Assembly (NCBI GenBank): GCA_016182095.1 | Contig: JACOXY010000010.1 | Span: forward strand, 334-64,333 | Direction of reading: 5' to 3' | DNA from: Candidatus Liptonbacteria bacterium | GTDB taxonomy: Bacteria; Patescibacteriota; Minisyncoccia; UBA6257; JACOXY01 | Length of the DNA stretch: 64,000 nt | Part shown: positions 11,976 to 56,785 of the stretch, piece after piece | Layout of the letters: each line of letters opens with the position of its first letter | Numbering within the stretch: position 1 is the first letter of the stretch | Program-made: the position numbers and the translations under genes | Notes under the pieces: model-generated | Told to the model about the DNA's origin: nothing | The model's input: the letters and a program-made list of their open reading frames with translations, nothing else | Databases searched by the model: none

Positions 11976-11994
11976 AATTTGATACAATATAAAA

Positions 11995-30807: not shown

Positions 30808-30905
30808 GGTTAAGGTTAGGAAGCCAGTTTGGTTTGTGGGGTTCTGGTTATTGGTCTTAAAAACGCTTAGCCTAAAAACTTTTTACCAAACCGGCATCTT
30901 AACCC
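30808..30905. repeat. Repeat family F3 copy A: imperfect inverted repeat GGTTAAGGTTAGGAAGCCAGTTTGGT ... ACCAAACCGGCATCTTAACCC.
   Basis: Arms read directly. Related copies at 36797-36902 and a collapsed hairpin form at 56202-56245. Confidence 0.5.
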
Positions 30906-30969
30906 TTACCCGAATACTTTTTTAGAATCATTAGTAATTATTTAGAGTAATTGCCCGCTACGCGGGCTG

Positions 30970-30989
30970 TTATCCACACGTCATCCACA
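30970..30989 (+). promoter_or_regulatory. Two tandem DnaA-box matches (TTATCCACA perfect, TCATCCACA 8/9) 13 nt upstream of a TATAAT -10 hexamer (31003-31008) in front of the first gene of the T4SS-like locus.
   Basis: Boxes and -10 hexamer read directly. Preceded by hairpin GCCCGC TAC GCGGGC. Confidence 0.5.
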
Positions 30990-31015: not shown

Positions 31016-31825
31016 ATGCGTTACATCAAATTATTCGGCATTTTGACGCTTGTTTCAGCAAGCGCAAGTTTTGTTTTGTTTCTTTTTTCCTATAATTTAT
31101 CGGCTTTGACAGCTGAAAATTCAAAAAAACAAACAAAATCTTCGCTGGAAGAGAATTTCACGTCCATCGTAAAGCAAACCGGCCTAAATAATAAAATAGG
31201 CTCAACTAAGGTTGCGCCAACGGAAAATTATAAGAAAGAAGAGAATCTTACGCAATCCTTTATTGAAGAGCTAACTAATGAGATTGTAACCAAAAATCCC
31301 GCGGGTGTCGCCACAATAGACGGGGAACTGTCTTTGGTCGCTCCCAACGAAATATCTATAAGTGACTTCGCGGCCAAGAATAGCAAACTTATTGATTGGC
31401 GTAATTTTATACCTAAAATTTCCGATAAAGACATAAAAATAACATCCATAAATTCATCCAAGGAATACAAAAAATATCTAACTTCTCTGTACGGCATTAT
31501 CAAAGAAACTCTTTCGGATACAAGCTCTGCAACCGAAACACAGCCAAAACAAAAAGATTATTATCAAACAGCGAACGCGGTAGTAAATAAGTATGAAAAC
31601 ACGATTCAGGCAGTCTACGCGCTTCCCACGCCCGAGGGCCTGAAAGAGTTCCATAAAAAAGAATTGGCGCTCCTGATAGCCCAAAAAAATGTTTATCAAA
31701 AAGTCAGCGGCGCCAAAAAAGATCCATTAAGCGCGCTTATCGCGATGCAAGCCAATAAAAAAATTGATGCCGCTTTTTCGGATCTCAAAAAGGAGCTAAA
31801 AACAACCATAGAAAACACCCTTTAA
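31016..31825 (+). CDS. Secreted/membrane-anchored hypothetical protein. First gene of the T4SS-like locus.
   Basis: N-terminal signal/TM (LFGILTLVSASASFVLFLF). Lys/Glu-rich, no recognisable domain. Confidence 0.3.
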   Translation: MRYIKLFGILTLVSASASFVLFLFSYNLSALTAENSKKQTKSSLEENFTSIVKQTGLNNKIGSTKVAPTENYKKEENLTQSFIEELTNEIVTKNPAGVATIDGELSLVAPNEISISDFAAKNSKLIDWRNFIPKISDKDIKITSINSSKEYKKYLTSLYGIIKETLSDTSSATETQPKQKDYYQTANAVVNKYENTIQAVYALPTPEGLKEFHKKELALLIAQKNVYQKVSGAKKDPLSALIAMQANKKIDAAFSDLKKELKTTIENTL

Positions 31826-31836
31826 CCACGCGCAAC

Positions 31837-33330
31837 ATGAGTAATAAAAATTTTTTCTATATTTTAACAGCCGCAATAGCCATAGCGATAATGCTCGCGG
31901 CTCTGCCCGCAAATAAAGCGAGCGCCCAACTGCACAACATTGAATTTGACGCTTCAAACGGCTGTGACGAGGCGCATGGCGGAGGTGGCGGTGATTTTGT
32001 GCCGGTCTGCGAAGTAAATCCCCGCATCGTTTTGCCAAGCCGGCCGGACTACACATTTATAGATGATCTGATATTTATGGCAACCGATGACCCACAGGGG
32101 CTTTCGGAAATATTGCAACAAGGGGGACTGCCCGGGGAACTCCAATCCGACATGAGTATTTTGGGAAACCTGCAGAACTTGAATATGTTTTTCTTATTTG
32201 ACGAGTTTATATTCAAGTACATCAAAGAGCAGTTTAAGCTTCAGGCGATTGATACTATGGCCAATCAGGCGACTCAATGGGTTACAGGTGACGGAGAAAA
32301 CCCCCAGTTTATACAAGACTGGGAATCATATTTGTCCAACGCTTATGATATCGGGTACTATTCAGTGCCTAATGAGCTTGCGGTTGCGGAAGTTTGTCCT
32401 CAATTTAAAGATCAGCTAATATCCACAGTTGGCGGATCATTCCCGGAGTTCCCGGTTGATGAAGAGTCGCCATTTATAGACCAAATGCAGTGTACCTTAA
32501 ACAGCTTCCTTGAAAGCCAGGGCGGTTCGTATGACTTGTATCAAGAAGACTTCAGGAATGGCGGCTGGCTTGCCTATTCGGAGCAGTTATACAAACCACA
32601 AAATACTTATCTTGGATCGGTGTTCGCGTCTATTGATGAAGGACAGCGCAGGGCCGAGAGCAAACAGAACGCTATTGAACGCGAAGCCTTGGCAAGTAAC
32701 GGCTACCTTCCAATAAAAAGATGCTCTAGGGCTTTGCCTTCCATTTCCAATCCTTTCACGGCGTCACCCACAGAATGCTTAGAGTATCAGGTAACTTCAC
32801 CGGCATCGGTGTTTGAGAGCGCGCTTGATGCTTCAGTGCAGAGCCGATTTAACTATGTGGTAAACGCCGATCAATATATGGAGTTCCTGAATGTACTGCT
32901 GAATTCTTTTACCAATAAGCTAAGCGCGGCCGGGAGCGGCGGACTGTATGATTATGGCAGAGAAGCGGCAGAGGATGTTGGCGGAGTTAGCGGTGGATAT
33001 TTAGGAACACCAGAGCAAATGCCGCCGTCTGGAGAGGCGGGGCTTCGCTGGGCGTGTTATGACGCCATAAGCGGTAATAGCATTGGCTCCACCTTTAATG
33101 ATCTTGATGCCTGCCGGGCGCAAACAACCTGCGGAACGACTCCGGCCCGTTGCGGACTTTGCATGCCGGAAGGCGGAGTTGATTGTTCGGGAGATGAGTT
33201 TTATCCTCTGCCGGGAGAACTGATGGGAGCCGAGCCAATATGGCCGGAAATAGCGGACGAGGGCGCCCAGCCAATATGGCCGGAGGATTGGATACAGTGG
33301 CTATTAGATTTGTTTAATTGGTTTTTATAA
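31837..33330 (+). CDS. Secreted Cys-containing hypothetical protein (497 aa) with tandem C-terminal EPIWPE repeats.
   Basis: Signal peptide (AALPANKASAQ). GAEPIWPEIADEGAQPIWPEDW near the C-terminus. Confidence 0.3.
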   Translation: MSNKNFFYILTAAIAIAIMLAALPANKASAQLHNIEFDASNGCDEAHGGGGGDFVPVCEVNPRIVLPSRPDYTFIDDLIFMATDDPQGLSEILQQGGLPGELQSDMSILGNLQNLNMFFLFDEFIFKYIKEQFKLQAIDTMANQATQWVTGDGENPQFIQDWESYLSNAYDIGYYSVPNELAVAEVCPQFKDQLISTVGGSFPEFPVDEESPFIDQMQCTLNSFLESQGGSYDLYQEDFRNGGWLAYSEQLYKPQNTYLGSVFASIDEGQRRAESKQNAIEREALASNGYLPIKRCSRALPSISNPFTASPTECLEYQVTSPASVFESALDASVQSRFNYVVNADQYMEFLNVLLNSFTNKLSAAGSGGLYDYGREAAEDVGGVSGGYLGTPEQMPPSGEAGLRWACYDAISGNSIGSTFNDLDACRAQTTCGTTPARCGLCMPEGGVDCSGDEFYPLPGELMGAEPIWPEIADEGAQPIWPEDWIQWLLDLFNWFL

Positions 33331-33386
33331 AGGCGAGCATTAAAAGCGATTAGGCTTTTAAATATAATCAATACGCGACTCTACCC

Positions 33387-35558
33387 ATGAAATTATTTAA
33401 CACAAAAAAAATATTTTTCATTCTAATTTTGGTCTTTTTTTCTGCTTCATTTTTTGCTTCACCAGTCAAGATAGCTAACGCGCAGGCATGTGACCAACCT
33501 GGCTCTACCTGTACAACCTCTGGTGGGGAAGATGGGAAGTGTATCAACTCCGGCCAAAACAACAGATGCATCGCCAATGTTCTGCTTGGCTCTACACAAA
33601 AAATTGGTCCGGCAACCGCCGCGAGCGTAGCCACTAAAGTTGGTTTGGGGGCGTTATCTGGCATAGCTTCATTTTTTAATTGGCTAATCACCTTAATTGC
33701 CGGGGGGTTGATACAGTTAGTGGTCTGGCTTATTGAAGTTGCCTTGGGTTTAAATAGCAATATTTTAGCAATGCCAGCCGTGCAAATCGGTTGGGTCTTG
33801 GTCCGCGACGTGGCAAACCTGGGCTTTGTTTTGGGAATTATCGTGATCGCCTTTGCGACTATCATTAGACAGCAGAGCTACGGCATTAAAAATTTGCTCG
33901 TAAAACTGATTGTGGCGGCGGTGCTCGTAAATTTTAGCTTGCCCATAGCCGGGCTCGCGCTTGACGCCGCCGGAATCCCAACTCAATACTTTATAGATCA
34001 AATAGCAACACACGGCTCTCCCGGAGAATTTGCGCTAACTTTAGCCGGAGCTTTTGATATACAAAAAATTCCGGAGGCAAGCGACTCCGACCGAGGAGCG
34101 GCACTAAGAGCTCTGGGAGATGGAACCGTAGCGGTTTCCAACACTTTTTTCTCGGCTATATTTAGCTTGCTTATTCTTATCACGCTCGCGGCTGTCGCGA
34201 TAATGTTATTTATGCGATTTGTCGCTGTCGGATTGCTTTTGGTATTAATGCCTATGGCAATCCTTTTTTCCGTTTTCCCAAAGTTCAGCGGCAATTTTCA
34301 CAAGTGGCTGGAACAATTTTTGCGCTGGACGTTTTTTGCCCCAGCGGTTCTTTTCTTTATATATCTCGCAATCTACACGGTTAAAGTTCAACAGGGGTTT
34401 TTTGGGGCGCTCTCGGCTAAACTGCAAGCAGATCCGTCGGGAGTGGCGGCGGCGCTTACGAGCAATTTAAAACTTATTGGCAGTAACCCGCTTTATACTA
34501 TCGGCAATATGGCTTTAATGATCGGTTTAACCATGGGGGGGCTTTTTGTTGCTAATTCACTAAGCTTAATGGGGGGCATGGGGGTTGCCACGGCGGCACA
34601 AGGTTACGCGCAAAGATGGACAAAGAAAATTTTAAAGGCTCCGGTTGTGGCCGGTGGAGCAGCTGGCGCGTACGCGTGGGAGCGGGCTAAGACCGTAGGC
34701 GGAGCAGAAGTTGGGCCGGATGGCAAGGCAAAAGCTCCTTATTTACAACGCGCCTCTTCTTATTTGGCTACCATACCTGGCGTTGGGAGAGCATTTAGAG
34801 GAATAGCCGAGGGCAGAGCCACTGCGACTAAAGATATAGGAGCTGAGGTGGAAAAAATGAGGGGTGAGCGGTTTGATAATATGTCCAAAGATTACAGGTT
34901 TGCTATTGGCAACAAATTCACGAGGGTCGCAAATCCAAGGGTTGTGGCCGCAAATGCCCTATCTATGGCGGGGAAAGGAGAGTTTAGGGAGTTCCTTGAA
35001 AAGGCGGGGCCGGAAACCATAGATATTTTCTTAAATGCCCTACGCAAAACCGGAACCTCCAAAAACTTGCTTTCATCAAACCCGGAACTTGCTCCCGAAT
35101 TCGGAGAGGATCTCAAGAAAGTTATGCCTAGGGTACCTGGGGAAAGTTATGAGAAGTTTAGCGAAAAAACATTTGAACTTGCTAAAGATGCCGCTGGAAA
35201 TATTAAAAGTCTGGCGGATAATATGGCAAAGCAAATCGTCTTATTCGGCAGTCCTGGTGGATTTACAAGAATTGCTCAAAACGCGCCTCAATTAGTTGGA
35301 CCGGTAATGCAAGCATTTGAAGAATTGCGGAAGGAAATGCAGGCGTTAAAAACAACAAAGATAGATGCGGGAACGGCTACCGATGAAGAAAAACAAAATT
35401 ATAATAGATTCTTGACCCAGCGCAGCTTATTCTACCAGAATTATTCATATCAAAGTCTGGCAAATGCCGCCGATTTAGCTGCATTTAACGCCACAAGCAG
35501 ACGAAGGAGGCGCGGTGGAGGTGGAGCCGGCGGTGGAGGCGGATCCACAACGCCATAA
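33387..35558 (+). CDS. VirB6/TrbL-like polytopic inner-membrane protein with Cys-rich N-terminal secreted segment, a long hydrophilic C-terminal domain and a Gly/Arg-rich tail.
   Basis: Signal peptide, >=6 TM helices in the central region (IAGGLIQLVVWLIEVALGL, FVLGIIVIAFATII, LIVAAVLVNFSLPIAGLAL, LLILITLAAVAIMLFMRFVAVGLLLVLMPMAILF, FFAPAVLFFIYLAIY). Architecture as in T4SS VirB6-family proteins. Confidence 0.45.
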   Translation: MKLFNTKKIFFILILVFFSASFFASPVKIANAQACDQPGSTCTTSGGEDGKCINSGQNNRCIANVLLGSTQKIGPATAASVATKVGLGALSGIASFFNWLITLIAGGLIQLVVWLIEVALGLNSNILAMPAVQIGWVLVRDVANLGFVLGIIVIAFATIIRQQSYGIKNLLVKLIVAAVLVNFSLPIAGLALDAAGIPTQYFIDQIATHGSPGEFALTLAGAFDIQKIPEASDSDRGAALRALGDGTVAVSNTFFSAIFSLLILITLAAVAIMLFMRFVAVGLLLVLMPMAILFSVFPKFSGNFHKWLEQFLRWTFFAPAVLFFIYLAIYTVKVQQGFFGALSAKLQADPSGVAAALTSNLKLIGSNPLYTIGNMALMIGLTMGGLFVANSLSLMGGMGVATAAQGYAQRWTKKILKAPVVAGGAAGAYAWERAKTVGGAEVGPDGKAKAPYLQRASSYLATIPGVGRAFRGIAEGRATATKDIGAEVEKMRGERFDNMSKDYRFAIGNKFTRVANPRVVAANALSMAGKGEFREFLEKAGPETIDIFLNALRKTGTSKNLLSSNPELAPEFGEDLKKVMPRVPGESYEKFSEKTFELAKDAAGNIKSLADNMAKQIVLFGSPGGFTRIAQNAPQLVGPVMQAFEELRKEMQALKTTKIDAGTATDEEKQNYNRFLTQRSLFYQNYSYQSLANAADLAAFNATSRRRRRGGGGAGGGGGSTTP

Positions 35559-35569
35559 TTTAATAATAT

Positions 35570-36784
35570 ATGCCCCATAAATTAATAGACATACCGCAAG
35601 AAATTAGGGTTTGGTTAGCGTCAGAGGCCGCCACACAGCACATCGTGTTTATAAATAAACAGTTTGCTTTTGTTGAGGAAAAAATGAGAATAATACCTAT
35701 TTTGTTATTTCAGCTGACATCAAAAGAAATCCAACCGCAAGATTTTGTAAGTGAACTAAGCGACTGGTTAGATGTGAGCTCAGAATCCGCAAGGACACTC
35801 GCAAGAGAAATTGAAGAAAAAATTTTAGAGCCGATCAAGAGACCTCTTTTAAACTGGGGCATTGATATAAGCCTGATAAAAATAGGGGCTTTGAGTGAAG
35901 AGCTACGCCCAATCATTGCGCCCCCGCCTCCTTTGCCCCCCGACTTGCCCCCCGAAGCCTCGGCGAAGGGGGGAGCTTTAGCGCAGGAGGGCGCCACCAC
36001 ACCCAAAATATCAATATTCCCTTCTGCGAGTGAACCCCAAAAATCCTACACCCCTCCGCCGCCACCCGCCCCGGGGAAAAGTTTTGAGCCGTCATTTATG
36101 GGTGGCGCTCCGCGCACAGAAGATCTTGGCGCAAAAAAAATAAGGGCAATTGGCGGCACCCATGGCATTGGGGAAGAAAGTGAGCGCGAGGATAAGTCCT
36201 TCGGCGAAGCTCAGGACAAGCCCTTTATTATTCATAAGGAACCCTCGTTAGAGCCGGTTTCTAAAGATTTGCCATACGCAATCCCGTCCATCCCAAGCTC
36301 GCAAAACGAACAAAAAAACATACCAAGGCCGGATTTAGTGGCGCGCGCAAGAGAAGGGCAAACTCCGTGGCAGGATTTGATTCCCAAAAAAGAGCACTCC
36401 TCTCACGCTAAGGAAAAGCCCTTCGGCGAAGCTCGGGGCAAGCCCGTAGTCCTACCGCCCAAGCCAGTCGGAAAGAATTTAAGAGAACAAACACCACACA
36501 ATAATCCGGATTTAGCGGAACAAGCAAAACCAAGAAAAGAGGTGAGGCTCCCGGAGTCATCTTTTAAGATCGTGCATTATGACGAAGAAGAGCTGGCCGC
36601 AAAAGAGAAATTTAAAGCTATACCAAAACCAAGCGCCCCCCTAGACGGAACGTTAAGGGGCGAGCATTCTGTAAAACAGAATGTTTTAGCCAAGCCAGCC
36701 GATCTGCCAATGTTGCCCGATAAAGATGTTCATAAAAATAAACCCGGGCCCAAAGTTAAGGGGAATATGGTAGACCTTAGGTAA
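35570..36784 (+). CDS. Pro-rich protein with internal KPFGEA(Q/R)(D/G)KP repeats. No TM.
   Basis: PPPPLPPDLPPE and PPPPPAPG tracts. DNA-level ~30-nt repeat near 36193-36240 and 36417-36460. Confidence 0.3.
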   Translation: MPHKLIDIPQEIRVWLASEAATQHIVFINKQFAFVEEKMRIIPILLFQLTSKEIQPQDFVSELSDWLDVSSESARTLAREIEEKILEPIKRPLLNWGIDISLIKIGALSEELRPIIAPPPPLPPDLPPEASAKGGALAQEGATTPKISIFPSASEPQKSYTPPPPPAPGKSFEPSFMGGAPRTEDLGAKKIRAIGGTHGIGEESEREDKSFGEAQDKPFIIHKEPSLEPVSKDLPYAIPSIPSSQNEQKNIPRPDLVARAREGQTPWQDLIPKKEHSSHAKEKPFGEARGKPVVLPPKPVGKNLREQTPHNNPDLAEQAKPRKEVRLPESSFKIVHYDEEELAAKEKFKAIPKPSAPLDGTLRGEHSVKQNVLAKPADLPMLPDKDVHKNKPGPKVKGNMVDLR

Positions 36785-36796
36785 ATTTGCCTGTTG

Positions 36797-36902
36797 TGGG
36801 GTAAGGGTTAAGAAGCCGGTTTGGTAAAAGTTTTTGGGTTAAGTGTTTTTAAAGACCGACTACCAGAACCCCTAAACCAAACTGGCCTCCTAACCCTAAC
36901 CC
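36797..36902. repeat. Repeat family F3 copy B (inverted-repeat hairpin element). Right arm ends in (CCCTAA)-like telomere-type hexamers.
   Basis: GGGGTAAGGGTTAAGAAGCCGGTTTGGT ... ACCAAACTGGCCTCCTAACCCTAACCC read directly. Confidence 0.5.
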
Positions 36903-36929
36903 AACCATGGGTTTTTGATTTTTAATATT

Positions 36930-37598
36930 ATGGCCCAATTTCAAGTTCCACAATTCATAGAAATTGAACAGAAGATTATAGCCGGCCGGATGACGCTAAA
37001 GCAATTTATTTTAGTGTGTGCCGGAATTTTGGTGGCTTTCGGTTTATTTTTTGTATTATATTTTATTACCTGGATAATTCTCACGACAATACTCGCAGCC
37101 GCCGTTTTGGCTCTTGGGTTTTTAAAAATCGGGGGGCGGCCGCTCTTGTCCATTCTTAGCGCCGCCTTTGTTTATTATTGGAATCCGTCTTTTTATCTTT
37201 GGCAATCGGAGGAGGGAGTAAGGATTGAAATTCCCAAAATAGAAACTAAAATTCATAAGGTTCACGAAGAAAAAACAGCGGGGGAAGAGTATATAAGACC
37301 GCAACTACCGCGAGAATTTACCGCGAGACCAGAGGTTAAACTCCCCGCAATTACCGAGAAAAAATTCGCGCCTCCGGCATCACCGGCCGCATATCAGGAT
37401 AAAGAGGCGCGCGCGAAAGTCGCGGGCGGACGCGAATTGCAAAATTTATGGGAGAGGATAAGCACATCAAAACTCGCCCTGCCCAAGCGAGAAAGAGCAA
37501 TAAATTTTTTCCTCAAAGACAAGGCGCGCGAAAATTACGAGATTCTGCGGAAAGCAACCGGAGAGATGGAAGTGGCAAAACGTGTTGATTTCAAATGA
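36930..37598 (+). CDS. PrgI/VirB3-like small membrane protein (true start MAQFQVPQFIEIE).
   Basis: N-terminal QFQVPQFIEIEQKIIAGRMTLKQFIL followed by two TM helices. Lies immediately upstream of VirB4, as is typical for PrgI-family proteins. Confidence 0.5.
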   Translation: MAQFQVPQFIEIEQKIIAGRMTLKQFILVCAGILVAFGLFFVLYFITWIILTTILAAAVLALGFLKIGGRPLLSILSAAFVYYWNPSFYLWQSEEGVRIEIPKIETKIHKVHEEKTAGEEYIRPQLPREFTARPEVKLPAITEKKFAPPASPAAYQDKEARAKVAGGRELQNLWERISTSKLALPKRERAINFFLKDKARENYEILRKATGEMEVAKRVDFK

Positions 37599-37611
37599 AA
37601 TCAACACGTTC

Positions 37612-37755
37612 AAGTTCTAAATCCTAAACCCTAAATTCTAAACAAATTTAAAACCAAATTTTAAAGTTCAAACCAGTATTTATTTTGCTTTGTGTTTAGA
37701 GTTTAAAGTTTTAAGTTTGTTTAGAGTTTAGAAATTAGAATTTAGAGTTTAATTT
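37612..37755. repeat. Inverted array of telomere-like CCCTAAA / TTTAGAG heptamers forming a long imperfect hairpin between the prgI-like and virB4-like genes.
   Basis: ctaaatcctaaaccctaaattctaaac vs gtttagagtttagaaattagaatttagagttta read directly. Confidence 0.45.
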
Positions 37756-37770
37756 AGCTATAATATCATT

Positions 37771-38418
37771 ATGACTCAATCTGGCGCTTTGCCCTCTCAA
37801 CAATTTGTTGAAGTTGAAGAGATTAAAGAAGACACCGTGGTTTTAAAAGCCGGCGGCCTAAGAAAGATACTGCTCGTGTCCGGCATCAACACGGAGCTTA
37901 AATCCGAAGAGGAACAAAGCGCCGTTTATTTTCTTTTTCAAAATTTTTTGAACAGTTTAGATTTCAGCATCCAGATAGCCATACACTCCCGCAAATTAAA
38001 CATTTCGGAATATTTAGAATACCTAAAGGGGCAGGAAGAAAATGAAACAAACGAACTTTTAAAAAATGGCATTGAGGAATATGCGGAATTCATAAAGTCA
38101 TTCGTCCAGGAAAACGACATTATGACAAAAAATTTCTTCGTGGTAGTTCCGTTTGAATCTCTGGCTATCCCCGGAGAAAAGAAAATCAAGTCGATGCTTC
38201 CTTTTGGTTTGGGGAAAAGCACGAACGCCGACACGGGCGAGGAAGAAGAGGATGATTTCACGCAAAGCGTTAACCAGTTGAACCAGCGGGTTGATCAGGT
38301 TATCGCCGGTCTCCACAATGTTGGCCTCCGCGCCGTGGTTTTAAATACAGAAGAGCTTACGGAGCTTTTTTATAACCTGTATAACCCGGAAACAATAGAA
38401 AAGAAAATGGCGTTATAA
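37771..38418 (+). CDS. VirB4/TrbE-family N-terminal domain as a separate 215-aa ORF.
   Basis: Stop codon then 5-nt gap (attaa) before the ATG of the ATPase ORF in a different frame. Combined, 215+570 aa puts the Walker A ~447 residues from the N-terminus, as in full-length VirB4. Confidence 0.4.
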   Translation: MTQSGALPSQQFVEVEEIKEDTVVLKAGGLRKILLVSGINTELKSEEEQSAVYFLFQNFLNSLDFSIQIAIHSRKLNISEYLEYLKGQEENETNELLKNGIEEYAEFIKSFVQENDIMTKNFFVVVPFESLAIPGEKKIKSMLPFGLGKSTNADTGEEEEDDFTQSVNQLNQRVDQVIAGLHNVGLRAVVLNTEELTELFYNLYNPETIEKKMAL

Positions 38419-38423
38419 ATTAA

Positions 38424-40136
38424 ATGGACGAAAAACAAATCAAAAACATCATAGCGCCTTCGGCGATTAAGATTAGCCCCAATAGCGTGAAAATCGGGGA
38501 CAAGTATTTAAAAACCCTGTTTATTTTTTCATTCCCCCGCTATCTTTCTTCGGGCTGGCTGAATCCGATTATAAATTTGCCGGAGCTTTTGGATATGTCT
38601 ATTTTTGTGCATCCGGTTGATACCTCAATTGCCTTGAAAAATTTAATGAAAAAGGCCGCCCAGCTTGAGGCGGAAATAATGGAACACCAAGAAAGTGGAT
38701 TGGTGCGCGATCCAGCGCTAGAAACCGCCTATAAAGACATTGACTCGCTCCGCGATGCCCTACAGCAGGCCAGGGAAAAGCTTTTTAATGTCGGCTTATA
38801 TGTCACAATCTATGCCGACACCGCTGAAAATTTAAACAAGCTGGAAGCAAAGATTACTTCAATGTTTGAGAATAAGCTGGTTTACATTAAAAACGCCGTC
38901 TTTCAGCAAGGCGAGGGCTACACCTCCATTCTGCCTTTGGGCGAAGACAAGTTAAGAATCTACACGCCGTTAAACTCCGGCCCTCTTTCAAGTTTTTTCC
39001 CGTTTATTTCAACGGACCTTACAAGCAATAAAGGCGTAATGTATGGTTTAAACCGCCACAACAGCACGCTCATAATTTTTGACAGGTTTTCTTTAGAGAA
39101 CGCCAACACCGTTATTTTTTCTAAATCCGGCGCGGGAAAATCTTATGCCGCCAAACTTGAAATCTTGAGAATGCTTATGACCGGGGTTGACGTTTTGATT
39201 GTTGATCCGGAAAACGAGTATGAGACGCTCACAAGATCCGTGGGCGGCACGGTGTTTAAAATAGGCCTGCTATCAAAAGACCATATAAACCCCCTGGACA
39301 TCCCGCCAGTGCCCGAAGACGAAAATCCCGGAGAAGTTTTGAAGTCTCACACGCTAAATTTAGCCGGGCTCCTTAAGCTTATGTTAGGCAAAATAAAACC
39401 GGAGGAAGACGCATTGCTAGACCAAGCGATAACCGAAGTTTATGCCGCGAGAGGCATAACGGCCGGTAAAGATTTTGGAGGAATTGAGCCTCCGCGCCTG
39501 CAAGACTTAAGAATAGTTTTGGAAAATATGCAAGGCGGGAGAGATTTAGCCCAGCGCCTCTACAGATTTACCGATGGAAGTTTTGCCGGCTTCGTGAACC
39601 AGCCAACCAATATTAATGTTTCAAATCGCCTTATCGCCTTTTCCATCCGCGATCTGGAGCCGGAATTACGGCCAATTGCCATATATATAATTCTAAACTT
39701 CATTTGGAATATGATCAGATCAAAACTTAAAAAAAGAATTATTGTTTTGGACGAGGCATGGTGGATGATGAAAATAGAGGAAGGAGCGCAATTTCTTTTT
39801 GGACTGGTAAAAAGAGCCAGAAAATATTATCTGGGCGTAACAACCATCACGCAGGACGTGGAAGATTTCATAAATTCTCCGTATGGCAAACCGATTATCA
39901 CCAATTCTTCCCTGCAGTTATTGCTCCAGCAGGCGCCAGCCGCAATAGACGTAGTGGCCAAAACTTTCGCCCTGACAGAAACAGAGAAAAACCTGCTTAT
40001 TGAAGCGGAGGTGGGTCATGGTATATTTTTTGCCGGCCTAAAACACGTCGCCATACAAATTATCCCATCCTTTTTTGAGAATAAAATTATAACCACTAAT
40101 CCCGAGGAAATACTGCAGATGAGGAAAGAAACTTAA
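38424..40136 (+). CDS. virB4: VirB4/TrbE/CagE-family T4SS ATPase, C-terminal (RecA-like) part.
   Basis: Walker A SKSGAGKSY and Walker B IIVLDEAWWMM. Overall pattern matches VirB4 C-terminal domain. Confidence 0.65.
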   Translation: MDEKQIKNIIAPSAIKISPNSVKIGDKYLKTLFIFSFPRYLSSGWLNPIINLPELLDMSIFVHPVDTSIALKNLMKKAAQLEAEIMEHQESGLVRDPALETAYKDIDSLRDALQQAREKLFNVGLYVTIYADTAENLNKLEAKITSMFENKLVYIKNAVFQQGEGYTSILPLGEDKLRIYTPLNSGPLSSFFPFISTDLTSNKGVMYGLNRHNSTLIIFDRFSLENANTVIFSKSGAGKSYAAKLEILRMLMTGVDVLIVDPENEYETLTRSVGGTVFKIGLLSKDHINPLDIPPVPEDENPGEVLKSHTLNLAGLLKLMLGKIKPEEDALLDQAITEVYAARGITAGKDFGGIEPPRLQDLRIVLENMQGGRDLAQRLYRFTDGSFAGFVNQPTNINVSNRLIAFSIRDLEPELRPIAIYIILNFIWNMIRSKLKKRIIVLDEAWWMMKIEEGAQFLFGLVKRARKYYLGVTTITQDVEDFINSPYGKPIITNSSLQLLLQQAPAAIDVVAKTFALTETEKNLLIEAEVGHGIFFAGLKHVAIQIIPSFFENKIITTNPEEILQMRKET

Positions 40137-40178
40137 TATAAATCAAAAACCAAAAATAAAAAATTAAAATTATAGATT

Positions 40179-40214
40179 GTCCCCCACCGCTTTTTTAAAA
40201 AAGCGGTGGGGGAC
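40179..40214. terminator. Strong bidirectional terminator: GTCCCCCACCGCTTTTTT AAAAAAGCGGTGGGGGAC.
   Basis: Perfect 18-nt palindromic hairpin read directly. Confidence 0.7.
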
Positions 40215-40253
40215 TCCATCATATTTGATTTTTAATATTTAATTTTTAATTTA

Positions 40254-40640
40254 ATGAACAAGCCCCATATTTCTCTGCCGGAAGCCATTATAATGCTACT
40301 AATAGCGGCGATGTCTGATGTTTTTGAGCTTTTGGTAACATTGGTTGGGTGGAGCGCGGTAATTATTCCTTATGTTGGCTGGCTTATAACCACGGCGGCG
40401 CCTTTTATAATTTTTTTTGAAAATCTGGTTGTTTTGGCCATAATTCAATTCTGGCTTATAATAAAAGGGGTGCGAAGTTGGATATTCGGAGTTGGCGGGT
40501 TGCTAGATTTTGTTCCTCTGCCGGGCATTAGCGCTTTCAATTTGAAAACTTTATGGTTGGTGGCGCTCATTATACGGGTCAATATGGGCGCGTCGCTTCC
40601 GTTAGTAGGAAAAGTAGCCGGGGCGACGGCAAAGAAATAA
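40254..40640 (+). CDS. Small polytopic membrane protein (3-4 TM).
   Basis: Hydrophobic ORF, no domain. Confidence 0.3.
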   Translation: MNKPHISLPEAIIMLLIAAMSDVFELLVTLVGWSAVIIPYVGWLITTAAPFIIFFENLVVLAIIQFWLIIKGVRSWIFGVGGLLDFVPLPGISAFNLKTLWLVALIIRVNMGASLPLVGKVAGATAKK

Positions 40641-40642
40641 AT

Positions 40643-40716
40643 ATATAATGCGAAAGTACGAATACATTATGCCTATAGCCTGTCGGCTCGGCCGATTAAG
40701 GCGAAATTTGCGAAAC
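40643..40716. mobile_element. Repeat family F2 copy 2 (truncated, lacks right end). Overlaps the annotated start of ORF 40648.
   Basis: atataatgcgaaagtacgaatacattatgcctatagcctgtcggctcggccgattaaggcgaaatttgcgaaacc read directly. Confidence 0.6.
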
Positions 40717-41418
40717 CAGCTCAAAGTCCAACCTCGGAAATCTAGGAGTACTTGCTTTATAACAGTTTTAGCCAGCATAGCGTTGCTTATTTTGGCTGTT
40801 TTGCAATTTAGATCGGCTAACGCCCAATCAACCCCGGCCTTTTGGGTTACTTGGGGCGCAGATTCATATGTCCCGGATTATTTTATTGGGAAAGCAATGC
40901 CATCCCGCGCTTCCAACATAACCGTTTCTTTTGAGATTTTAGAAAACGGCAAGCCATTAAGCTTAAGCGGGCAGGAGGTGAGGTGGTTTATAAATAATAC
41001 CATAGCGGCAAAAGGCGTTGCTTTAAAAACTTTTTCATTTCGCGCGGGCGCGAGCGCTCCGCTTGTAAGAATTGAATTGCCTGGATTTAGGGGGGGGGCA
41101 TCTCTCATAAAGTCGTTTCAAATACCCGTAAGAGAGCCGGAGATTGTAATTAAAGCGGCGGGCGTTGCGCAAGCGGGACAAGATATAAGTCTTAGCGCCA
41201 TATCCTATTTTTTCAATATCCAAAATCTGTCAGAACTTTTTTTCACTTGGAAAGTTAACTCTGTCTCTCCGGAGGGAACACCTAAGAATCCGGAACTTTT
41301 GACTATTTCCGTGCCGACGGAGGCAAAAAGCGGGGACAAGATAATAACAGAGGTGTTTGTTGGGACTTATGGATCTTCCCTAAGGGTATCCGGGAGAAAA
41401 ATTTTAACGGTAAAATAA
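40648..41418 (+). CDS. Secreted hypothetical protein. N-terminal 23 residues of the track ORF are encoded by repeat F2, so the true start is probably later. Contains a G9 homopolymer in-frame (41090-41098).
   Basis: Hydrophobic signal-like segment CFITVLASIALLILAVLQFRSANAQ. Poly-G read directly. Confidence 0.35.
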   Translation: MRKYEYIMPIACRLGRLRRNLRNQLKVQPRKSRSTCFITVLASIALLILAVLQFRSANAQSTPAFWVTWGADSYVPDYFIGKAMPSRASNITVSFEILENGKPLSLSGQEVRWFINNTIAAKGVALKTFSFRAGASAPLVRIELPGFRGGASLIKSFQIPVREPEIVIKAAGVAQAGQDISLSAISYFFNIQNLSELFFTWKVNSVSPEGTPKNPELLTISVPTEAKSGDKIITEVFVGTYGSSLRVSGRKILTVK

Positions 41419-41454
41419 GTTATCCTTCGACAAGATCAGAAAATAAATTTTAGA

Positions 41455-42210
41455 ATGACACAAATGAATACAAATAAAATTATTTCTAAAATACTGCTTA
41501 TTCTAATCGCGGCTTTGGTTCTCGCGGCTCCTTTTGTGGTTTATGTCGCAAGCGCGGCGGAGGGGTATAAAATCACCACCTCTTTGCCGGGCACAGACAT
41601 CATCAAAGGACAAACGGCCAAGGGAATAACTCTCCAGCAATATGTGAGACAGCTTTATCTTTTCTCGTTGGGCATCGTGGGGCTAGTGGCGCTTGCCGCC
41701 ATTACCTATCAGTCGGTCCGTTATATAATGGCCGCCGGAAACGCCTCTAAAATGAGCGACGCCATGGGCGGCGTCCAGGATGCTGTTTTGGGGTTGGTTC
41801 TACTGCTTCTTGCCGCCACAATTCTTGTTTTTATTAATCCCAACCTTGTGAACCTGCGTTCATTTGACGATTATTTACAGCCCATCTCCGGACCACAAGT
41901 TTTACCATGTAACGTTGGCGGGCCTTGTACAACTTTTAGCAGTTGCCCAGGCACCGCAACCGCCTGCAACGCGGATGGCTCATATAACTGTGCCGACAAT
42001 CCCAATGACAATTGCCCTGCGACTAATACTGGCCTATATTATTGTAGAGCAAATACCGTTGACTGCGACAACCTTTTGGTGGGTCCATATAATACAAGCG
42101 CCAGTTGCACGTCGGTGTGCAACTCCGCGCTAATAGAAAGTCAGCCATGCAGCGGCCCGGGAGACAGAATTTTAAGCGGGCCTACTTGCGCCCAGGCGCC
42201 GGCCCCATAA
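41455..42210 (+). CDS. VirB2/TrbC-like pilin paralog 5 with long Cys-rich C-terminal extension (about 20 Cys).
   Basis: Signal/TM, helix pair LYLFSLGIVGLVALAAITYQSVRYIMAAGNASKMSDAMGGVQDAVLGLVLLLLAATILVF, then a Cys-rich tail. Confidence 0.45.
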   Translation: MTQMNTNKIISKILLILIAALVLAAPFVVYVASAAEGYKITTSLPGTDIIKGQTAKGITLQQYVRQLYLFSLGIVGLVALAAITYQSVRYIMAAGNASKMSDAMGGVQDAVLGLVLLLLAATILVFINPNLVNLRSFDDYLQPISGPQVLPCNVGGPCTTFSSCPGTATACNADGSYNCADNPNDNCPATNTGLYYCRANTVDCDNLLVGPYNTSASCTSVCNSALIESQPCSGPGDRILSGPTCAQAPAP

Positions 42211-42213
42211 ATT

Positions 42214-43137
42214 ATGAAAAGGCTTTTAGTATTAACTTTAATTTTAGCGGGTTTGATCGCAGCCGGAATAGGCGGTTATTATATCTGGCAGTACTACTCG
42301 GAGACTGTAAGTAATGAACCAAAACCCCCTGATAATAATAACGGCGGAACTACACCGCCCGAAACAACGGGGGTCCCGGTGAGTAAATTCAAATTGGTAA
42401 CCGATGCCGCTCTTCGCGCTTCTTTTGATAAAGGATGGGCTCCTCCGCAATTTCAGGAAAATTGGGTTAGCGCCGATTGGTCGCCCGATTCTTCGCAAGT
42501 TGTTTACTTAGAAACCGTGGGCGGAAAAACAAATCTGGGATTATTCACTCCGTCTAATCTTAAGAGCCAGGCACTTGCTTCGCTCACGCTCCGGGACACG
42601 ACGGTAACATGGCTAAATTCAAACGAAATAATTATCTCCGATAAACCATCTAAAGCAGTCCGGGGGTCGGTTTGGAAATATAAAATTAAGGAAAAGATTT
42701 TTGAGCCGGTCATCACGGAAGAGTTGGGTCCTTGGATTCAATGGGACAAGAATTTTAACGGCGGCATTAAATTTAGTACGAGTCAAGGCGGGACAAGCCC
42801 CCCCACGAAGCTCGAGGCAAGTATTATTGATAACACCGGCAAAGTTGTAAAAATGCTGCCTTTTATAACCTTCCCCGACAAGTGCGTTTTTGAAAATGCC
42901 TTGGTTTTTTGCGCTGTGCCAAATCGCATTCTATCCGGCGCGAATCTGCCAGACGATTATTTAAAAGGCTCTCTTGTTTTATCCGATGCCTTTTTTAGCT
43001 TTAACATAAAAACTGGGGCGGTGGAGTTCCTTGTCGATTCCGAAGGGTCAATTAACGCGACGCGCCTTAAAAAAATCGGCAATAAACTGCTTTTTATGAA
43101 CCACTACGACGATAAGCTTTATGAGATGCGGTTGTAA
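42214..43137 (+). CDS. Membrane-anchored periplasmic protein with TolB/PD40-like beta-propeller features.
   Basis: N-terminal TM. ADWSPDSSQVVYLETVGGKTNLGLF resembles PD40 repeats. Confidence 0.3.
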   Translation: MKRLLVLTLILAGLIAAGIGGYYIWQYYSETVSNEPKPPDNNNGGTTPPETTGVPVSKFKLVTDAALRASFDKGWAPPQFQENWVSADWSPDSSQVVYLETVGGKTNLGLFTPSNLKSQALASLTLRDTTVTWLNSNEIIISDKPSKAVRGSVWKYKIKEKIFEPVITEELGPWIQWDKNFNGGIKFSTSQGGTSPPTKLEASIIDNTGKVVKMLPFITFPDKCVFENALVFCAVPNRILSGANLPDDYLKGSLVLSDAFFSFNIKTGAVEFLVDSEGSINATRLKKIGNKLLFMNHYDDKLYEMRL

Positions 43138-43151
43138 TCGTTATAGCCGTT

Positions 43152-43544
43152 CTAACGTTCAAACGTTGAAGCAGATAGAGACTTTTCTAATCCCAAAAGC
43201 TTGAAATATTCTTTTTCAAGAAGCGCTTGAAGCGTCTTAACTTCTTCTACTAAAACAAAGTTTTCCTGTAGAGCTATTTTTACACACCCAACACACTCTA
43301 CTGTTGAGCCAATAGATCTTCGTATATATAAAATGAAAGATTTTTTTGTTGGTTGAGCGCTTCCTTCAACAATATTTAACACAATAGAAGTTGCCGCCCT
43401 TTTTAGCTGATTTACTAACGAAAAAAGCTCGTCTTTGGGAAACTTTTTAGTCACTTTATAAATCTCTTTAACAATATCCATTGCTATTCGGTAAACTTCC
43501 AAATTTTCAAAGCGATAATTTTTAAATTTTTTTTCGCTTTCCAT
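43152..43544 (-). CDS. Four-helix-bundle protein (TIGR02436 family), second copy. Flanked on both sides by AACG-type phased repeats.
   Basis: YRFENLEVYRIAMDIVKEIYKVTKKFPKDE...SIVLNIVEG family pattern. Confidence 0.65.
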   Translation of the reverse strand: MESEKKFKNYRFENLEVYRIAMDIVKEIYKVTKKFPKDELFSLVNQLKRAATSIVLNIVEGSAQPTKKSFILYIRRSIGSTVECVGCVKIALQENFVLVEEVKTLQALLEKEYFKLLGLEKSLSASTFER

Positions 43545-45394: not shown

Positions 45395-45535
45395 TTAAAC
45401 TGTCAACCTTTTCCTTCCTTTGGCTCTCCTCGCTTTGAGTACGCGCCTCCCGGTAGCCGCCCTAGATCTCTTTAAAAAGCCGTGGGTCCTGCTTCTTTTC
45501 CTTTTTTTGGGCTGATATGTGCGTTTTGTGGCCAT
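45395..45535 (-). CDS. rpmH: 50S ribosomal protein L34 (46 aa). Below the ORF-track size cutoff.
   Basis: My translation of the minus strand: [46 protein letters not shown]. Confidence 0.9.
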
Positions 45536-45692: not shown

Positions 45693-45712
45693 TTTTCCAC
45701 AACTAATCCACA
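45693..45712 (+). promoter_or_regulatory. Two adjacent DnaA-box-like 9-mers (TTTTCCACA, TAATCCACA) in the AT-rich rpmH-dnaA intergenic region (oriC candidate).
   Basis: Read directly. The surrounding 500 bp are >70% AT. Confidence 0.5.
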
Positions 45713-46042: not shown

Positions 46043-47437
46043 ATGGAAAATTTAGAGCAACAAGAACTAACAAAAATTTGGCAGTCGATTTTAAATGAGA
46101 TAGAGCTGCAGTTGCCTAAGGCAAGTTTTGTAACTTGGCTTAAAAACAGCGAGTTGGTTGATAAAAAAGATGGCGTTGCTTACATTGCTTTACCCAACAG
46201 TTTTACAAAGGCCTGGGTGGAAAATAAATACAATAAGATTATTTTAGGCAACATAAGACTGCTGGATGATTCAACTAAAAACATAAAATATTTGGTTAAA
46301 AGCGCCAAATCTTCCGACTTTCCCAAAGACGCCGATAAAAATAACGGCTCAAAAACCGAAACATCCGAAAAACAGCTTGCTTTCCCGGAATTTAAAATTG
46401 ATCCCGAAACCAACCTTAATCCCAAGTATACTTTCGCGACTTACGTAGTTGGCGGTTCAAATGAACTTGCCTATGCCGCCGCCCAGGGGGTTGTTGGCGA
46501 CATCGGCAAAAAATACAATCCTCTTTTTATTTATGGCGGGGTTGGACTCGGCAAAACGCACCTGATGCAATCTGTTGGCAATGAAATAAAAAATGCTTAC
46601 AAAAACCAGGTAAGGGTAAAATACGTAAGCTCGGAAAAGTTCACCAGTGACGTAATAGCCGCGATAAGAGCCAAGCGCGCCGAAGACGTTAAGAAAAAAT
46701 ATCGAGACGTTGATGTTTTGATAATAGACGACATCCAATTCATAGCCGGCAAAGAAAAAACAGAAGAGGAATTTTTTAATACTTTTAATGCTCTTTACGA
46801 GGTTAATAAACAGATTGTTATATCTTCCGATAGGCCGCCAAAAGCCATCCCTGTTTTAGAAGAGAGGCTTCGCTCCCGTTTTGAGGGCGGAATGGTGGTG
46901 GACATCAGCCCCCCGGATTACGAAACAAGAACGGCAATTATAAAAACCAAGCTGCAGCAAAAAAACAAGGAATTGCCCGACTCCGTTATTGACGTTATAG
47001 CCGCAAAAGTAAGAAAAAACATAAGGGAAATAGAGGGCATAGTAAATGTCGTTCTTTTCTATAAAGAACAAAAAAGGGCCGACCTTACGCCGCAGGCAGT
47101 TGAGGAAATTATTAGAAAAAATACCCAACACACCCCGGAAAATATAACTCCGAATCACATTGTAAGAGCTACGGCCAACTTCTTCCAAATTCCTATTGAT
47201 GACTTAATGGGTAAGTGCCGCAGGAAAGAATTTGTAAGGCCTCGGCAGGTTGCAATATATCTTTTGCGCGACATGCTTGATTTATCATATCCGCACATAG
47301 GAGACATTGTGGGGAAAAAGGACCACACCACCGCCATTCACGCCTATGAAAAGATCAATAAAGAATTAAACAAAAACAGCGATTTAAATCAAAAAATAAT
47401 TTTAATCAAAGATATTATTAATAAAAGCAGTGAATAA
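46043..47437 (+). CDS. dnaA: Chromosomal replication initiator DnaA.
   Basis: AAA+ Walker A GGVGLGKTHL, box VII, C-terminal DNA-binding domain (FVRPRQVAIYL...IGDIVGKKDHTTAIHA). Confidence 0.9.
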   Translation: MENLEQQELTKIWQSILNEIELQLPKASFVTWLKNSELVDKKDGVAYIALPNSFTKAWVENKYNKIILGNIRLLDDSTKNIKYLVKSAKSSDFPKDADKNNGSKTETSEKQLAFPEFKIDPETNLNPKYTFATYVVGGSNELAYAAAQGVVGDIGKKYNPLFIYGGVGLGKTHLMQSVGNEIKNAYKNQVRVKYVSSEKFTSDVIAAIRAKRAEDVKKKYRDVDVLIIDDIQFIAGKEKTEEEFFNTFNALYEVNKQIVISSDRPPKAIPVLEERLRSRFEGGMVVDISPPDYETRTAIIKTKLQQKNKELPDSVIDVIAAKVRKNIREIEGIVNVVLFYKEQKRADLTPQAVEEIIRKNTQHTPENITPNHIVRATANFFQIPIDDLMGKCRRKEFVRPRQVAIYLLRDMLDLSYPHIGDIVGKKDHTTAIHAYEKINKELNKNSDLNQKIILIKDIINKSSE

Positions 47438-47657: not shown

Positions 47658-47675
47658 TTATCCACATTTCCACAT
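47658..47675 (+). promoter_or_regulatory. Perfect DnaA box TTATCCACA plus adjacent ATTTCCACA in the dnaA-dnaN intergenic region. A further box (TGTGGATAA) lies at 48843-48851 after dnaN.
   Basis: Read directly. Confidence 0.55.
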
Positions 47676-48833: not shown

Positions 48834-49035
48834 TATTACCGCTGTGGATAATTGTCGGTATTGACTAAGTTTCTTTGGATATTATTCTCTTTACATATAA
48901 GGATATTATTTTTTTTAAAAACCCTACCTGCATTTCTACCACCCGGTTGACACAAGAAAGGATATGGTTATACTTTTGTAATAATTTAAAAGCAATCCAA
49001 ATCTTTTTAAAAGGTCGGAAAACAGAACAAAAATT

Positions 49036-56257: not shown

Positions 56258-56785
56258 ATGCTGCGAATTAATGAATTTCTTCCCAACCCAGCTGGCAAGG
56301 ATACTGCCGGTGAATTTATTGAGCTTTACAATTCGGGGTTCACGCCGATTAATCTCTCGGGGTTTTCTTTACGCGACAAAAGCGGCAAAGTTTTTAAATT
56401 ATCGGGGAGCATAGAGCCGCAAAGCTTCCGGATTTTTTGGCGCAAAGAAACAAAAATATCCTTAAATAATATCAATGAGAAAGTTTTTTTATTTGATAAT
56501 AGTGGCGCCCTGCTCCAGGGCGCGGGATTTTTAGGCGAGGCCAAAGAAGGCGCCAGTTTCTCTTTTGTCGCCCCCGATTTTATCTTTTCAAATACTCCTA
56601 CGCCGGGCGCGCCAAATCAAGCCGGCCCCATCTTCCGATTAACCGAAGAGTCGCGGTTCGCGCAAGCGGGAGATGTTGTGCGCAATAATCTATCCCTTTT
56701 CAATTTTATGTCTGCTATGATTTTTGTCGCTTTGCTATTTGGGCTTGGATCGGTTTATTTGCTTAAGTTTTATTTTGCTAAATGA
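56258..56785 (+). CDS. Lamin-tail-domain (LTD) protein with C-terminal TM anchor.
   Basis: INEFLPNPAGKDTAGEFIELYN...NLSGFSLRD matches the LTD consensus. C-terminal hydrophobic helix. Confidence 0.55.
   Translation: MLRINEFLPNPAGKDTAGEFIELYNSGFTPINLSGFSLRDKSGKVFKLSGSIEPQSFRIFWRKETKISLNNINEKVFLFDNSGALLQGAGFLGEAKEGASFSFVAPDFIFSNTPTPGAPNQAGPIFRLTEESRFAQAGDVVRNNLSLFNFMSAMIFVALLFGLGSVYLLKFYFAK

Follow-up and report, generated by a model that had tools for sequence, protein, structure and literature searches.

An origin-adjacent gene block in Candidatus Liptonbacteria with the components of a Patescibacteria type IV secretion system

Introduction

What kind of machine is encoded by a compact gene block that lies beside the replication origin of a Candidatus Liptonbacteria bacterium (Patescibacteriota)? 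The block occupies positions 31016-43137 of a 64,000-nucleotide stretch of contig JACOXY010000010.1 (assembly GCA_016182095.1), which we refer to throughout as the window. A first-pass annotation, made from the sequence alone, described it as a minimal apparatus related to type IV secretion systems (T4SSs). Our analysis indicates that the block is very probably a chromosomal, vertically inherited T4SS of the kind typical of Patescibacteria, derived from the MPF-FATA conjugation machinery of Gram-positive bacteria and most likely used for contact-dependent exchange with a host cell.

Much of bacterial diversity falls within Patescibacteria, and no T4SS before theirs had been shown to be essential to the bacterium carrying it. 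By transposon sequencing, Wang et al. 2023 (Cell, PMC10633639) found an “apparent T4SS” to be essential in Southlakia epibionticum, a cultured Saccharibacterium in which it is required for epibiotic growth; this system resembles Gram-positive conjugative systems, includes essential pilin genes and is without recognisable coupling and relaxase proteins (PMC10633639). A survey of 3,035 genomes by Quinonero-Coronel et al. 2025 (Microb Genom, PMC12102498) placed 2,425 VirB4 proteins in a Patescibacteria clade nested in MPF-FATA. TrsD was the most abundant associated component, PrgI/VirB3, VirB6 and VirB2-like pilins were encoded near virB4, and relaxases were nearly absent; the pilins include PF18895 proteins and arrays of 2-11 genes at ~25% identity, the VirB1 homologues carry M23 and LysM domains, and in Paceibacteria the locus lies near dnaA, dnaN, rnpA, ksgA and rpmH (PMC12102498). 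A 2025 FEMS review (PMC12857230) regards them as a new superfamily branch and puts forward the idea of the pilus as a conduit. The proposal in the first-pass annotation that the block might be an undescribed variant of episymbiont T4SS-like pili is therefore not borne out, such systems having been described in all three publications. The locus is very probably another, typical member of the published Patescibacteria T4SS and no new machine. What is added here is a pilin array, the domain of one accessory protein (g2) together with its fusion to another (g1), a TolB-like propeller and a set of hairpins in the intergenic gaps.

Results and discussion

The block encodes a Gram-positive-type T4SS core

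Families were assigned to open reading frames (ORFs) by Pfam and NCBIfam profile searches, with gathering scores or cutoffs as thresholds. Eleven ORFs of at least 120 residues, all on the plus strand, lie within 31016-43137, and in block order they encode 269, 497, 723, 404, 227, 215, 570, 128, 256, 251 and 307 residues. The ORFs are tightly packed and are flanked by ksgA on one side and by jag-yidC-rnpA-rpmH-dnaA on the other. The earlier description of a same-strand block of 12 genes thus stands as to strand and not as to number, as the ORF listing of the block contained no twelfth gene. Accessory genes are denoted here by their place in the block (g1, g2, g4, g8, g9 and g11).

The central component is a VirB4-family ATPase of 570 residues (38424-40136, plus strand) of the Gram-positive CD1110/PrgJ type. 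It scores 368 bits against NF045971 (the CD1110 family), for which the cutoff is 325, and matches Pfam P-loop_TraG with an E-value (E) of 2e-23, with weaker matches to TraC-F and VirB4_CagE. Its second-best model is Mbov_0397, at 273 bits, where the cutoff of 590 is not reached. Its translation shows both Walker motifs intact (A, SKSGAGKSY; B, IIVLDEAW). When the block proteins and their family profiles were compared with the PrgC-PcfC proteins of pCF10, only the match between VirB4 and PrgJ was significant (E 3e-43). In a wider homologue search all 8000 scored candidates had E values of 1e-20 or lower. Among the best 120 of these 8000, those that carry a name are from Patescibacteria or from unclassified bacteria known from metagenome-assembled genomes, at 66-100% identity; the identical protein (100%) is named Candidatus Liptonbacteria. 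Thus, by sequence, VirB4 would belong with the Patescibacteria proteins and have MPF-FATA affinity.

Five bp upstream of virB4 is a 215-residue ORF (37771-38418, plus strand) encoding a TrsD/TraD-like protein, which matches NF041427 (E 7.9e-11) as well as positions 105-233 of the VirB4_plasma model NF045975 (E 4e-12). Because this ORF corresponds to the N-terminal part of VirB4 models, VirB4 is evidently encoded here as two pieces, the N-terminal domain forming an ORF of its own. About 100 of the best 120 of the 8000 homologues are likewise ~566-600 residues long and thus split, and 19 are 718-801 residues. The lengths of the latter suggest a fused TrsD-VirB4 form, and among these homologues the split arrangement is the usual state.

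The ORF immediately before trsD encodes a PrgI/VirB3-like small membrane protein (36930-37598, plus strand), which scores 29.7 bits against PF12666 (gathering score 27). This ORF opens at a TTG codon at 36915, giving 227 residues, and contains an ATG at 36930; in the numbering of the 227-residue form, a hydrophobic hairpin spans residues ~21-49. The remaining core component is a 723-residue polytopic membrane protein (33387-35558, plus strand) with several hydrophobic segments between residues 87 and 395 and a hydrophilic C-terminal region of ~300 residues. Against the VirB6/TrbL family PF04610 it scores 17.7 bits (E 0.003), below the gathering score of 25.9. However, 10 of the 28 positional orthologues from syntenic loci match PF04610, with a best E of 1.8e-8, and the family is accordingly VirB6-like; its long hydrophilic C-terminus marks it as “extended”. 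The profile of this family gave nothing meaningful against PDB sequences; the best matches for the VirB6, g2 and g9 families had E values of 0.1-0.005 and were to coiled coils. Profile searches hence placed the proposed PrgI and VirB4 proteins above threshold, and the proposed VirB6, itself sub-threshold, is backed by its orthologues. Where the earlier description fell short was in limiting the apparatus to VirB2, VirB3/PrgI, VirB4 and VirB6, since the block also has the TrsD-like ORF and the window contains four additional pilin genes, 20 kb away on the upstream side.

This core has counterparts in the conjugative plasmids of Gram-positive bacteria. As in pCF10 (PrgF-PrgL, PcfC) and pIP501/pGO1, a PrgJ-homologous VirB4 has PrgI encoded directly upstream and a VirB6-type polytopic protein before it. 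A separate TrsD-like ORF is shared with pGO1, and a monoderm envelope without VirB7, VirB9 or VirB10 is shared with all of them. In contrast to pCF10, pIP501 and pGO1, the locus is chromosomal and vertically inherited, and it has no relaxase, VirD4/PcfC or LPXTG adhesins and no recognisable PrgK-type hydrolase or PrgL/VirB8. A second point of comparison is provided by the integrative conjugative elements (ICEs) of Mycoplasma, whose VirB4 (Mbov_0397) and pilin-like protein (Mbov_0395) are matched by the VirB4 and pilin of the block, both below curated cutoffs (the pilin weakly, E 0.004). These matches offer a precedent for a monoderm or wall-less T4SS that includes a small protein resembling a pilin, although the Mycoplasma elements are mobile, with integration and transfer functions of their own.

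The gene order is conserved between housekeeping genes

The comparative set comprised 80 VirB4 loci, collected by a scan of one genome per species and analysed by tblastn and profile searches. Their VirB4 proteins are 45-80% identical to that of the block and come from Paceibacteria, Gracilibacteria and Saccharimonadia. The order ksgA-g1-g2-virB6-g4-prgI-trsD-virB4-g8-g9-pilin-g11-jag-yidC-rnpA-dnaA-dnaN is present in full, minus g8, in one locus (L003) and, minus g4 and g8, in two others (L006 and L061). Five loci (L004, L009, L012, L013 and L014) have most of it in common and ~40 Paceibacteria-like loci have it in part. Across the 80 loci, trsD was found in 56, prgI in 38, in each case directly upstream of trsD-virB4, a pilin gene in 35 and virB6 in 28-31, while dnaA lies within 10 kb in 37. 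The genes g1, g2, g9 and g11 were found only in the closest 8-13 loci, at constant offsets from virB4, and not in the 10 Saccharimonadia-like loci examined. In the window, the end of the block is 2.3 kb from rpmH (45395-45535, minus strand) and 2.9 kb from dnaA (46043-47437), in agreement with the ~2 kb noted before. A synteny comparison had been suggested with the first description, and it shows that the ksgA...dnaA-dnaN order recurs in many Paceibacteria genomes. With this order conserved between housekeeping genes, the locus is chromosomal and vertically inherited and is no mobile element.

These data bear directly on whether the block could be an integrated conjugative element, intact or in decay. 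Its VirB4 is closest to CD1110 and Mbov_0397, which are families of ICEs and plasmids, an XerC/D-type tyrosine recombinase is encoded at 17252-18199, and repeats resembling miniature inverted-repeat transposable elements (MITEs) are found in and beside the block. However, unrelated genes surround the recombinase, which is 13 kb distant, and the repeats are short palindromes that are found elsewhere too and are not element ends. The G + C fraction is 0.40-0.47 over the block and its flanks, with no step or anomaly at the block, the ORFs are intact and retain the Walker motifs, and the 64 kb encode neither relaxase nor coupling protein. Moreover, the same order lies between the same housekeeping genes across many species, in which VirB4 identity is 53-80%. 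We rejected this explanation on synteny and composition and consider it extremely improbable. The view that the block is a chromosomal, origin-adjacent apparatus derived from a T4SS, and no ordinary conjugative element, is thus supported by profiles, synteny and composition alike.

Coupling protein, relaxase and VirB11 are absent from the window

Profile scans of the ORFs revealed no VirD4, relaxase or VirB11 in the 64-kb window, confirming what had been reported from the sequence. Every ORF of at least 400 residues outside the block has a housekeeping Pfam assignment, these being GyrA, a solute-binding protein, PNPase, ComM, UvrD, a peptidoglycan-binding protein, DnaA, PBP1, PolA, a histidine kinase and a PilB/GspE-type ATPase. 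The latter (53080-54780), the only T2SSE-family ATPase in the window, was considered as a VirB11 candidate and was rejected because it is of the PilB/GspE type that serves type IV pili. Within the block, Pfam and NCBIfam gave no matches to VirB8, VirB9 or VirB10, and neither the block proteins nor their profiles significantly matched PrgL, PrgK or PrgD of pCF10.

The first-pass annotation also reported no lytic transglycosylase. No lytic enzyme was recognised in the block itself, but a peptidoglycan endopeptidase with M23 (E 1e-24) and LysM (E 9e-20) domains is encoded 5 kb upstream of it (25092-26099, minus strand), and 15 related loci likewise have such a gene upstream of ksgA and the T4SS genes. 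We infer that this peptidase is a candidate cell-wall remodelling partner with a VirB1-like role.

In most respects the locus conforms to the Patescibacteria-clade T4SS as known from Southlakia (SEML1_0006-0019) and from the PMC12102498 survey. Common to them are an MPF-FATA VirB4, a separate TrsD, PrgI/VirB3 and VirB6, PF18895 pilins that include a multi-gene array, no relaxase or coupling protein nearby, and a chromosomal position beside dnaA, dnaN, rnpA, rpmH and ksgA, which is the Paceibacteria pattern. The locus differs in that its pilin array is 20 kb from the core and not inside it, in having no lysozyme or peptidase directly downstream of virB4, the M23/LysM gene being 5 kb upstream, and in carrying g1, g2, g9 and g11, which are shared with only some of the close Paceibacteria relatives. 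It adds no new principle and matches the published Paceibacteria pattern gene for gene.

How might such an apparatus work? In the single membrane, VirB3 and VirB6 would form the docking site for TrsD and VirB4, and ATP-driven extraction of two-helix pilins from that membrane, followed by their polymerisation, would produce a filament or a conduit through the cell wall. Cys-rich variable pilin tails and exported accessory proteins would then be displayed toward the host cell. With neither relaxase nor coupling protein in cis and with the locus fixed between housekeeping genes, contact-dependent exchange with the host is the most likely function, rather than conjugation. This exchange could take the form of protein export or of the import of host macromolecules, both cargo and direction being putative.

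Several considerations weigh against this interpretation. VirD4-like genes are present in most Patescibacteria genomes, usually far from virB4 (PMC12102498), and the present genome, of which 64 kb were examined, could have a coupling-protein gene at another place. No VirB8- or VirB1-like protein was recognised in the block. Pilus formation by PF18895 proteins is putative, both AlphaFold2 models that we obtained were unusable, and the roles of g1, g2, g8, g9 and g11 are drawn from position and conservation only. A requirement for epibiotic growth is known only from Southlakia (PMC10633639), and a PNAS perspective calls the role of the T4SS in Saccharibacteria “completely unknown” (PMC11665869). 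That perspective speculates on effector delivery or on ComB-like uptake (PMC11665869).

The second of these speculations raises the question of whether the block is instead a machine for importing DNA or nucleotides, akin to Helicobacter pylori ComB or archaeal Ced, in which the pilus would capture DNA, a VirB4/VirB6 channel would import it, and the imported host or environmental DNA would feed recombination or nucleotide salvage. The chromosomal ComB system of H. pylori has homologues of VirB2, VirB3, VirB4 and VirB6 and is devoid of coupling protein, VirB11 and relaxase; it also has a diderm outer-membrane core, ComB7-10. The block has the same VirB2/3/4/6 set without coupling protein, VirB11 or relaxase, a likeness in gene content only, but its VirB4 is of Gram-positive lineage and matches to VirB8, VirB9 and VirB10 are lacking in the block. 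The block VirB4 also weakly matches CedB (E 3e-7) and CedD (2e-5), although these matches are far below cutoffs and limited to the shared P-loop region. ComM (23247-24779), UvrD, RuvABC and a lamin-tail-domain (LTD) protein are encoded in the window and would fit DNA uptake, yet ComM and the Ruv genes serve ordinary housekeeping and are near the origin only by chance, and neither comEC nor comEA was found in the window. In Southlakia, deletion of comEC abolished competence and not viability (PMC12857230), whereas the T4SS is essential (PMC10633639), indicating that the essential role in that organism is not ComEC-coupled uptake. DNA import is, in our estimation, an unlikely function of the block. 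Contact-dependent exchange remains the interpretation that we favour. The locus makes the question of T4SS function no more testable than do the published examples.

Five divergent VirB2-like pilins

The pilin gene of the block (41455-42210, plus strand) encodes a VirB2-like T4SS pilin of 251 residues that scores 27.8 bits against PF18895 (gathering score 26.6). The protein has a signal or transmembrane (TM) segment, a two-helix pilin domain and a C-terminal tail of ~115 residues, and its hydrophobic segments are at residues 13-31, 67-85 and 109-127. The previously proposed VirB2-like pilin is thus confirmed; its tail, stated to have roughly 20 cysteines, has 12 by our count. A pilin of this kind is unusual for a monoderm, as Gram-positive conjugative systems are generally without VirB2-like pilins (PMC12857230).

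Some 20 kb upstream of the T4SS core, an array on the plus strand encodes four further VirB2-like pilins. Of these, the first (10806-11699) has 297 residues with a Gly-rich, Cys-containing tail and scores 32.0 bits against PF18895; the others have 172 residues (11995-12513; 40.6 bits), 108 residues (12602-12928; 33.7 bits) and 120 residues (13156-13518; 31.5 bits). They are 19-30% identical to the pilin of the block, which brings the number of PF18895 proteins in the window to five, all above the gathering score. Against the pCF10 proteins the top match of all five was PrgF, but no score exceeded ~5 bits and none was significant. The array (10806-13518) is immediately preceded by a gene for a solute-binding protein.

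In the related loci, the pilin-domain ORFs downstream of virB4 range from 125 to ~1546 residues, a range which indicates that the C-terminal tail is a variable appendage. This tail is probably displayed on the surface. One could therefore ask whether the system is only an adhesive surface filament that attaches the cell to its host without translocating any substrate. Five divergent pilin genes, two of which (10806-11699 and 41455-42210) encode Cys-containing tails, would be in keeping with such a filament, as would the orthologue extensions of up to ~1500 residues, which look like displayed adhesin domains, and the exported, beta-rich accessory proteins g9 and g11. Patescibacteria, however, already use type IV pili for adhesion and motility (PMC12857230, PMC11665869), and the window contains a PilB-type ATPase at 53080. 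In addition, an extended VirB6 channel protein is conserved along with VirB4, which is seemingly more than an adhesin fibre needs. We regard attachment as the sole function as rather improbable.

Accessory proteins of the block

The first two genes of the block seem to act together. The g1 gene (31016-31825, plus strand) encodes a Lys/Glu-rich protein of 269 residues with one N-terminal hydrophobic segment and no Pfam or NCBIfam family, and its orthologues, found in 8 loci, occupy a fixed position 6-7 kb upstream of virB4. The g2 gene (31837-33330, plus strand) encodes a secreted or anchored protein of 497 residues with 12 Cys. Its conserved domain of ~270 residues (residues ~120-390), in which C187, C219, F239 and G289 are invariant, has at least 2266 relatives among the representatives of 50%-identity clusters at E<=1e-3, and 960 at E<=1e-10. 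The domain has no relative in Pfam, NCBIfam or the PDB, and a scan of 49 members of the g2 family found no shared family; it thus appears to be a widespread, previously unannotated secreted domain. In 23 of the top 150 g2 representatives, and in one of the syntenic loci (L014), the g2 domain is preceded in the same protein by a g1-like domain (E down to 2e-46). These fusions indicate that g1 and g2 form one functional module, in which g1 would be a lineage-specific partner of g2. Structure prediction, which had been suggested for the 497-residue protein, did yield an AlphaFold2 model, from an alignment of 6 homologues, but its mean predicted local distance difference test score (pLDDT) of 34 provides no usable fold. 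A word-indexed search yielded only these 6 homologues, and starting from an alignment of 14 sequences added no others.

Three accessory genes have narrower or weaker conservation. The g4 product (35570-36784, plus strand; 404 residues, 53 Pro) is a proline-rich protein without a hydrophobic or TM-like segment and is presumably cytoplasmic. It matches no Pfam or NCBIfam family, and only its N-terminal part is conserved, with orthologues present in 5 loci; L003 has one ORF that matches this part as well as PrgI. The g8 product (40254-40640, plus strand) is a small membrane protein of 128 residues that is hydrophobic over most of its length and matches no Pfam or NCBIfam family, with weak orthologues at the same position in 3 loci (L004, L016 and L027). 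The g9 product (40648-41418, plus strand) is a bitopic protein of 256 residues with a basic N-terminus, one TM segment and an exported part of ~190 residues. Orthologues of g9 are present in 12 loci, always ~2 kb downstream of the virB4 start, and it has no match in Pfam or the PDB. A single-sequence AlphaFold2 model of g9 contained beta strands only, suggesting an all-beta exported part, although at a pLDDT of 44 this model is unusable.

The last gene of the block, g11 (42214-43137, plus strand), encodes a membrane-anchored TolB/PD40-like beta-propeller of 307 residues. Its orthologues are found in 11-13 loci, ~3.5 kb downstream of the virB4 start, and the copy in the window is ~60 residues shorter than most of them. 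The family profile matches the TolB propeller in the PDB (E 4.5e-8), so that the PD40-like propeller noted earlier is supported at the family level.

VirB5, VirB8 and VirB1 functions have not been found in most Patescibacteria so far. It is possible, if doubtful, that the g1-g2 module, g9 and g11 are undescribed structural parts that could stand in for VirB5, VirB8 or VirB1, and that the variable-tail pilins form a decorated filament for host recognition. The value of the locus is that of a clean, fully ordered example, with a list of conserved unannotated accessory genes for structural and genetic work, among which the g1-g2 fusion family is the most useful target.

Intergenic hairpins and DnaA boxes

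Each of the larger gaps at or within the block holds a strong hairpin, the exceptions being the 56-bp g2-virB6 and 36-bp g9-pilin gaps, and no Rfam family matched within the block at gathering thresholds. A palindromic repeat of ~105 nucleotides, resembling MITEs or repetitive extragenic palindromic elements, is located in the ksgA-g1 gap (30808-30910), with inverted arms of 26 nucleotides that are 81% complementary and a predicted fold of -38.2 kcal/mol (z -3.1). The MITE said to precede the block is therefore present, and a second copy had been missed. This copy, in the g4-prgI gap (36799-36901), is 87.6% identical to the first and on the opposite strand, with a predicted fold of -44.7 kcal/mol (z -3.8), such that two inverted copies bracket the g1-g4 part of the block. 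Relatives of the repeat occur in three unrelated metagenome contigs (L082-L084) that have no T4SS genes nearby, which points to a dispersed element and no T4SS-specific signal.

The prgI-trsD gap contains an AT-rich palindrome of ~140 nucleotides (37612-37750) composed of GTTTAGA heptamers and their complement, scored by TRF as 8.7 copies. It is followed by TATAAT and by the ATG at 37771, and its predicted fold is -44.6 kcal/mol (z -9.3). This palindrome is present once in the window, and one of the other loci (L069) has a weakly similar stretch. After virB4 there is a perfect 16-bp GC-rich hairpin (40179-40214), terminator-like in both directions, with a predicted fold of -33.1 kcal/mol (z -7.9). 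The putative transcription units of the block are g1-g4, prgI, trsD-virB4 and g8-g11.

Directly upstream of a TATAAT and of the ATG at 31016, on the plus strand, are two DnaA-box-like 9-mers (30970-30989), TTATCCACA at 30970, which is perfect, and TCATCCACA at 30981, 11 bp apart. The window has only three perfect DnaA boxes; the other two (47658-47666 and 48843-48851) flank dnaN and probably mark oriC. None of 23 related loci has DnaA boxes at the equivalent upstream position. Of the DnaA-box-containing promoter described earlier, then, the boxes are there and a regulatory role finds no support, and as a conserved feature, control by DnaA was rejected. Upstream of dnaA, another two DnaA-box-like 9-mers (45693-45712) have the same 11-bp spacing.

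Neighbouring genes and other features of the window

Upstream of the block are ComM, the M23/LysM peptidase (minus strand), UvrD, a peptidoglycan-binding protein (minus strand) and KsgA. Downstream are a 23S rRNA intervening sequence protein-family gene, Jag (R3H), YidC, RnpA and RpmH, all on the minus strand, followed by DnaA, DnaN and PBP1A. The first of these downstream genes (43152-43544), directly after the block, is one of two in the window that encode a “23S rRNA intervening sequence protein” (PF05635, weakly bAvd-like), the other being at 2232-2630. A PF05635-family gene is also found inside the T4SS locus in some relatives, just upstream of prgI in five (L006, L009, L014, L025 and L028) and just downstream in one (L036). 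No reverse transcriptase was seen in the window.

The first 2000 nucleotides of the window are GC-rich (57%, compared with ~43% elsewhere) and may be foreign DNA; a 324-residue ORF in this stretch (1146-2120, minus strand) has no Pfam match and no Rfam match. GyrA (5053-9351, 1432 residues) contains an intein (Intein_splicing, E 2e-33) with a LAGLIDADG homing endonuclease domain (LAGLIDADG_3, E 4e-20). A tRNA-Leu gene (15494-15577) is overlapped on the opposite strand by a 176-residue ORF (15273-15803), which for that reason is probably spurious. The PilB/GspE ATPase gene (53080-54780) and the gene for the lamin-tail-domain protein (56258-56785) lie amid ruvABC, tsaE and polA and are unrelated to the block.

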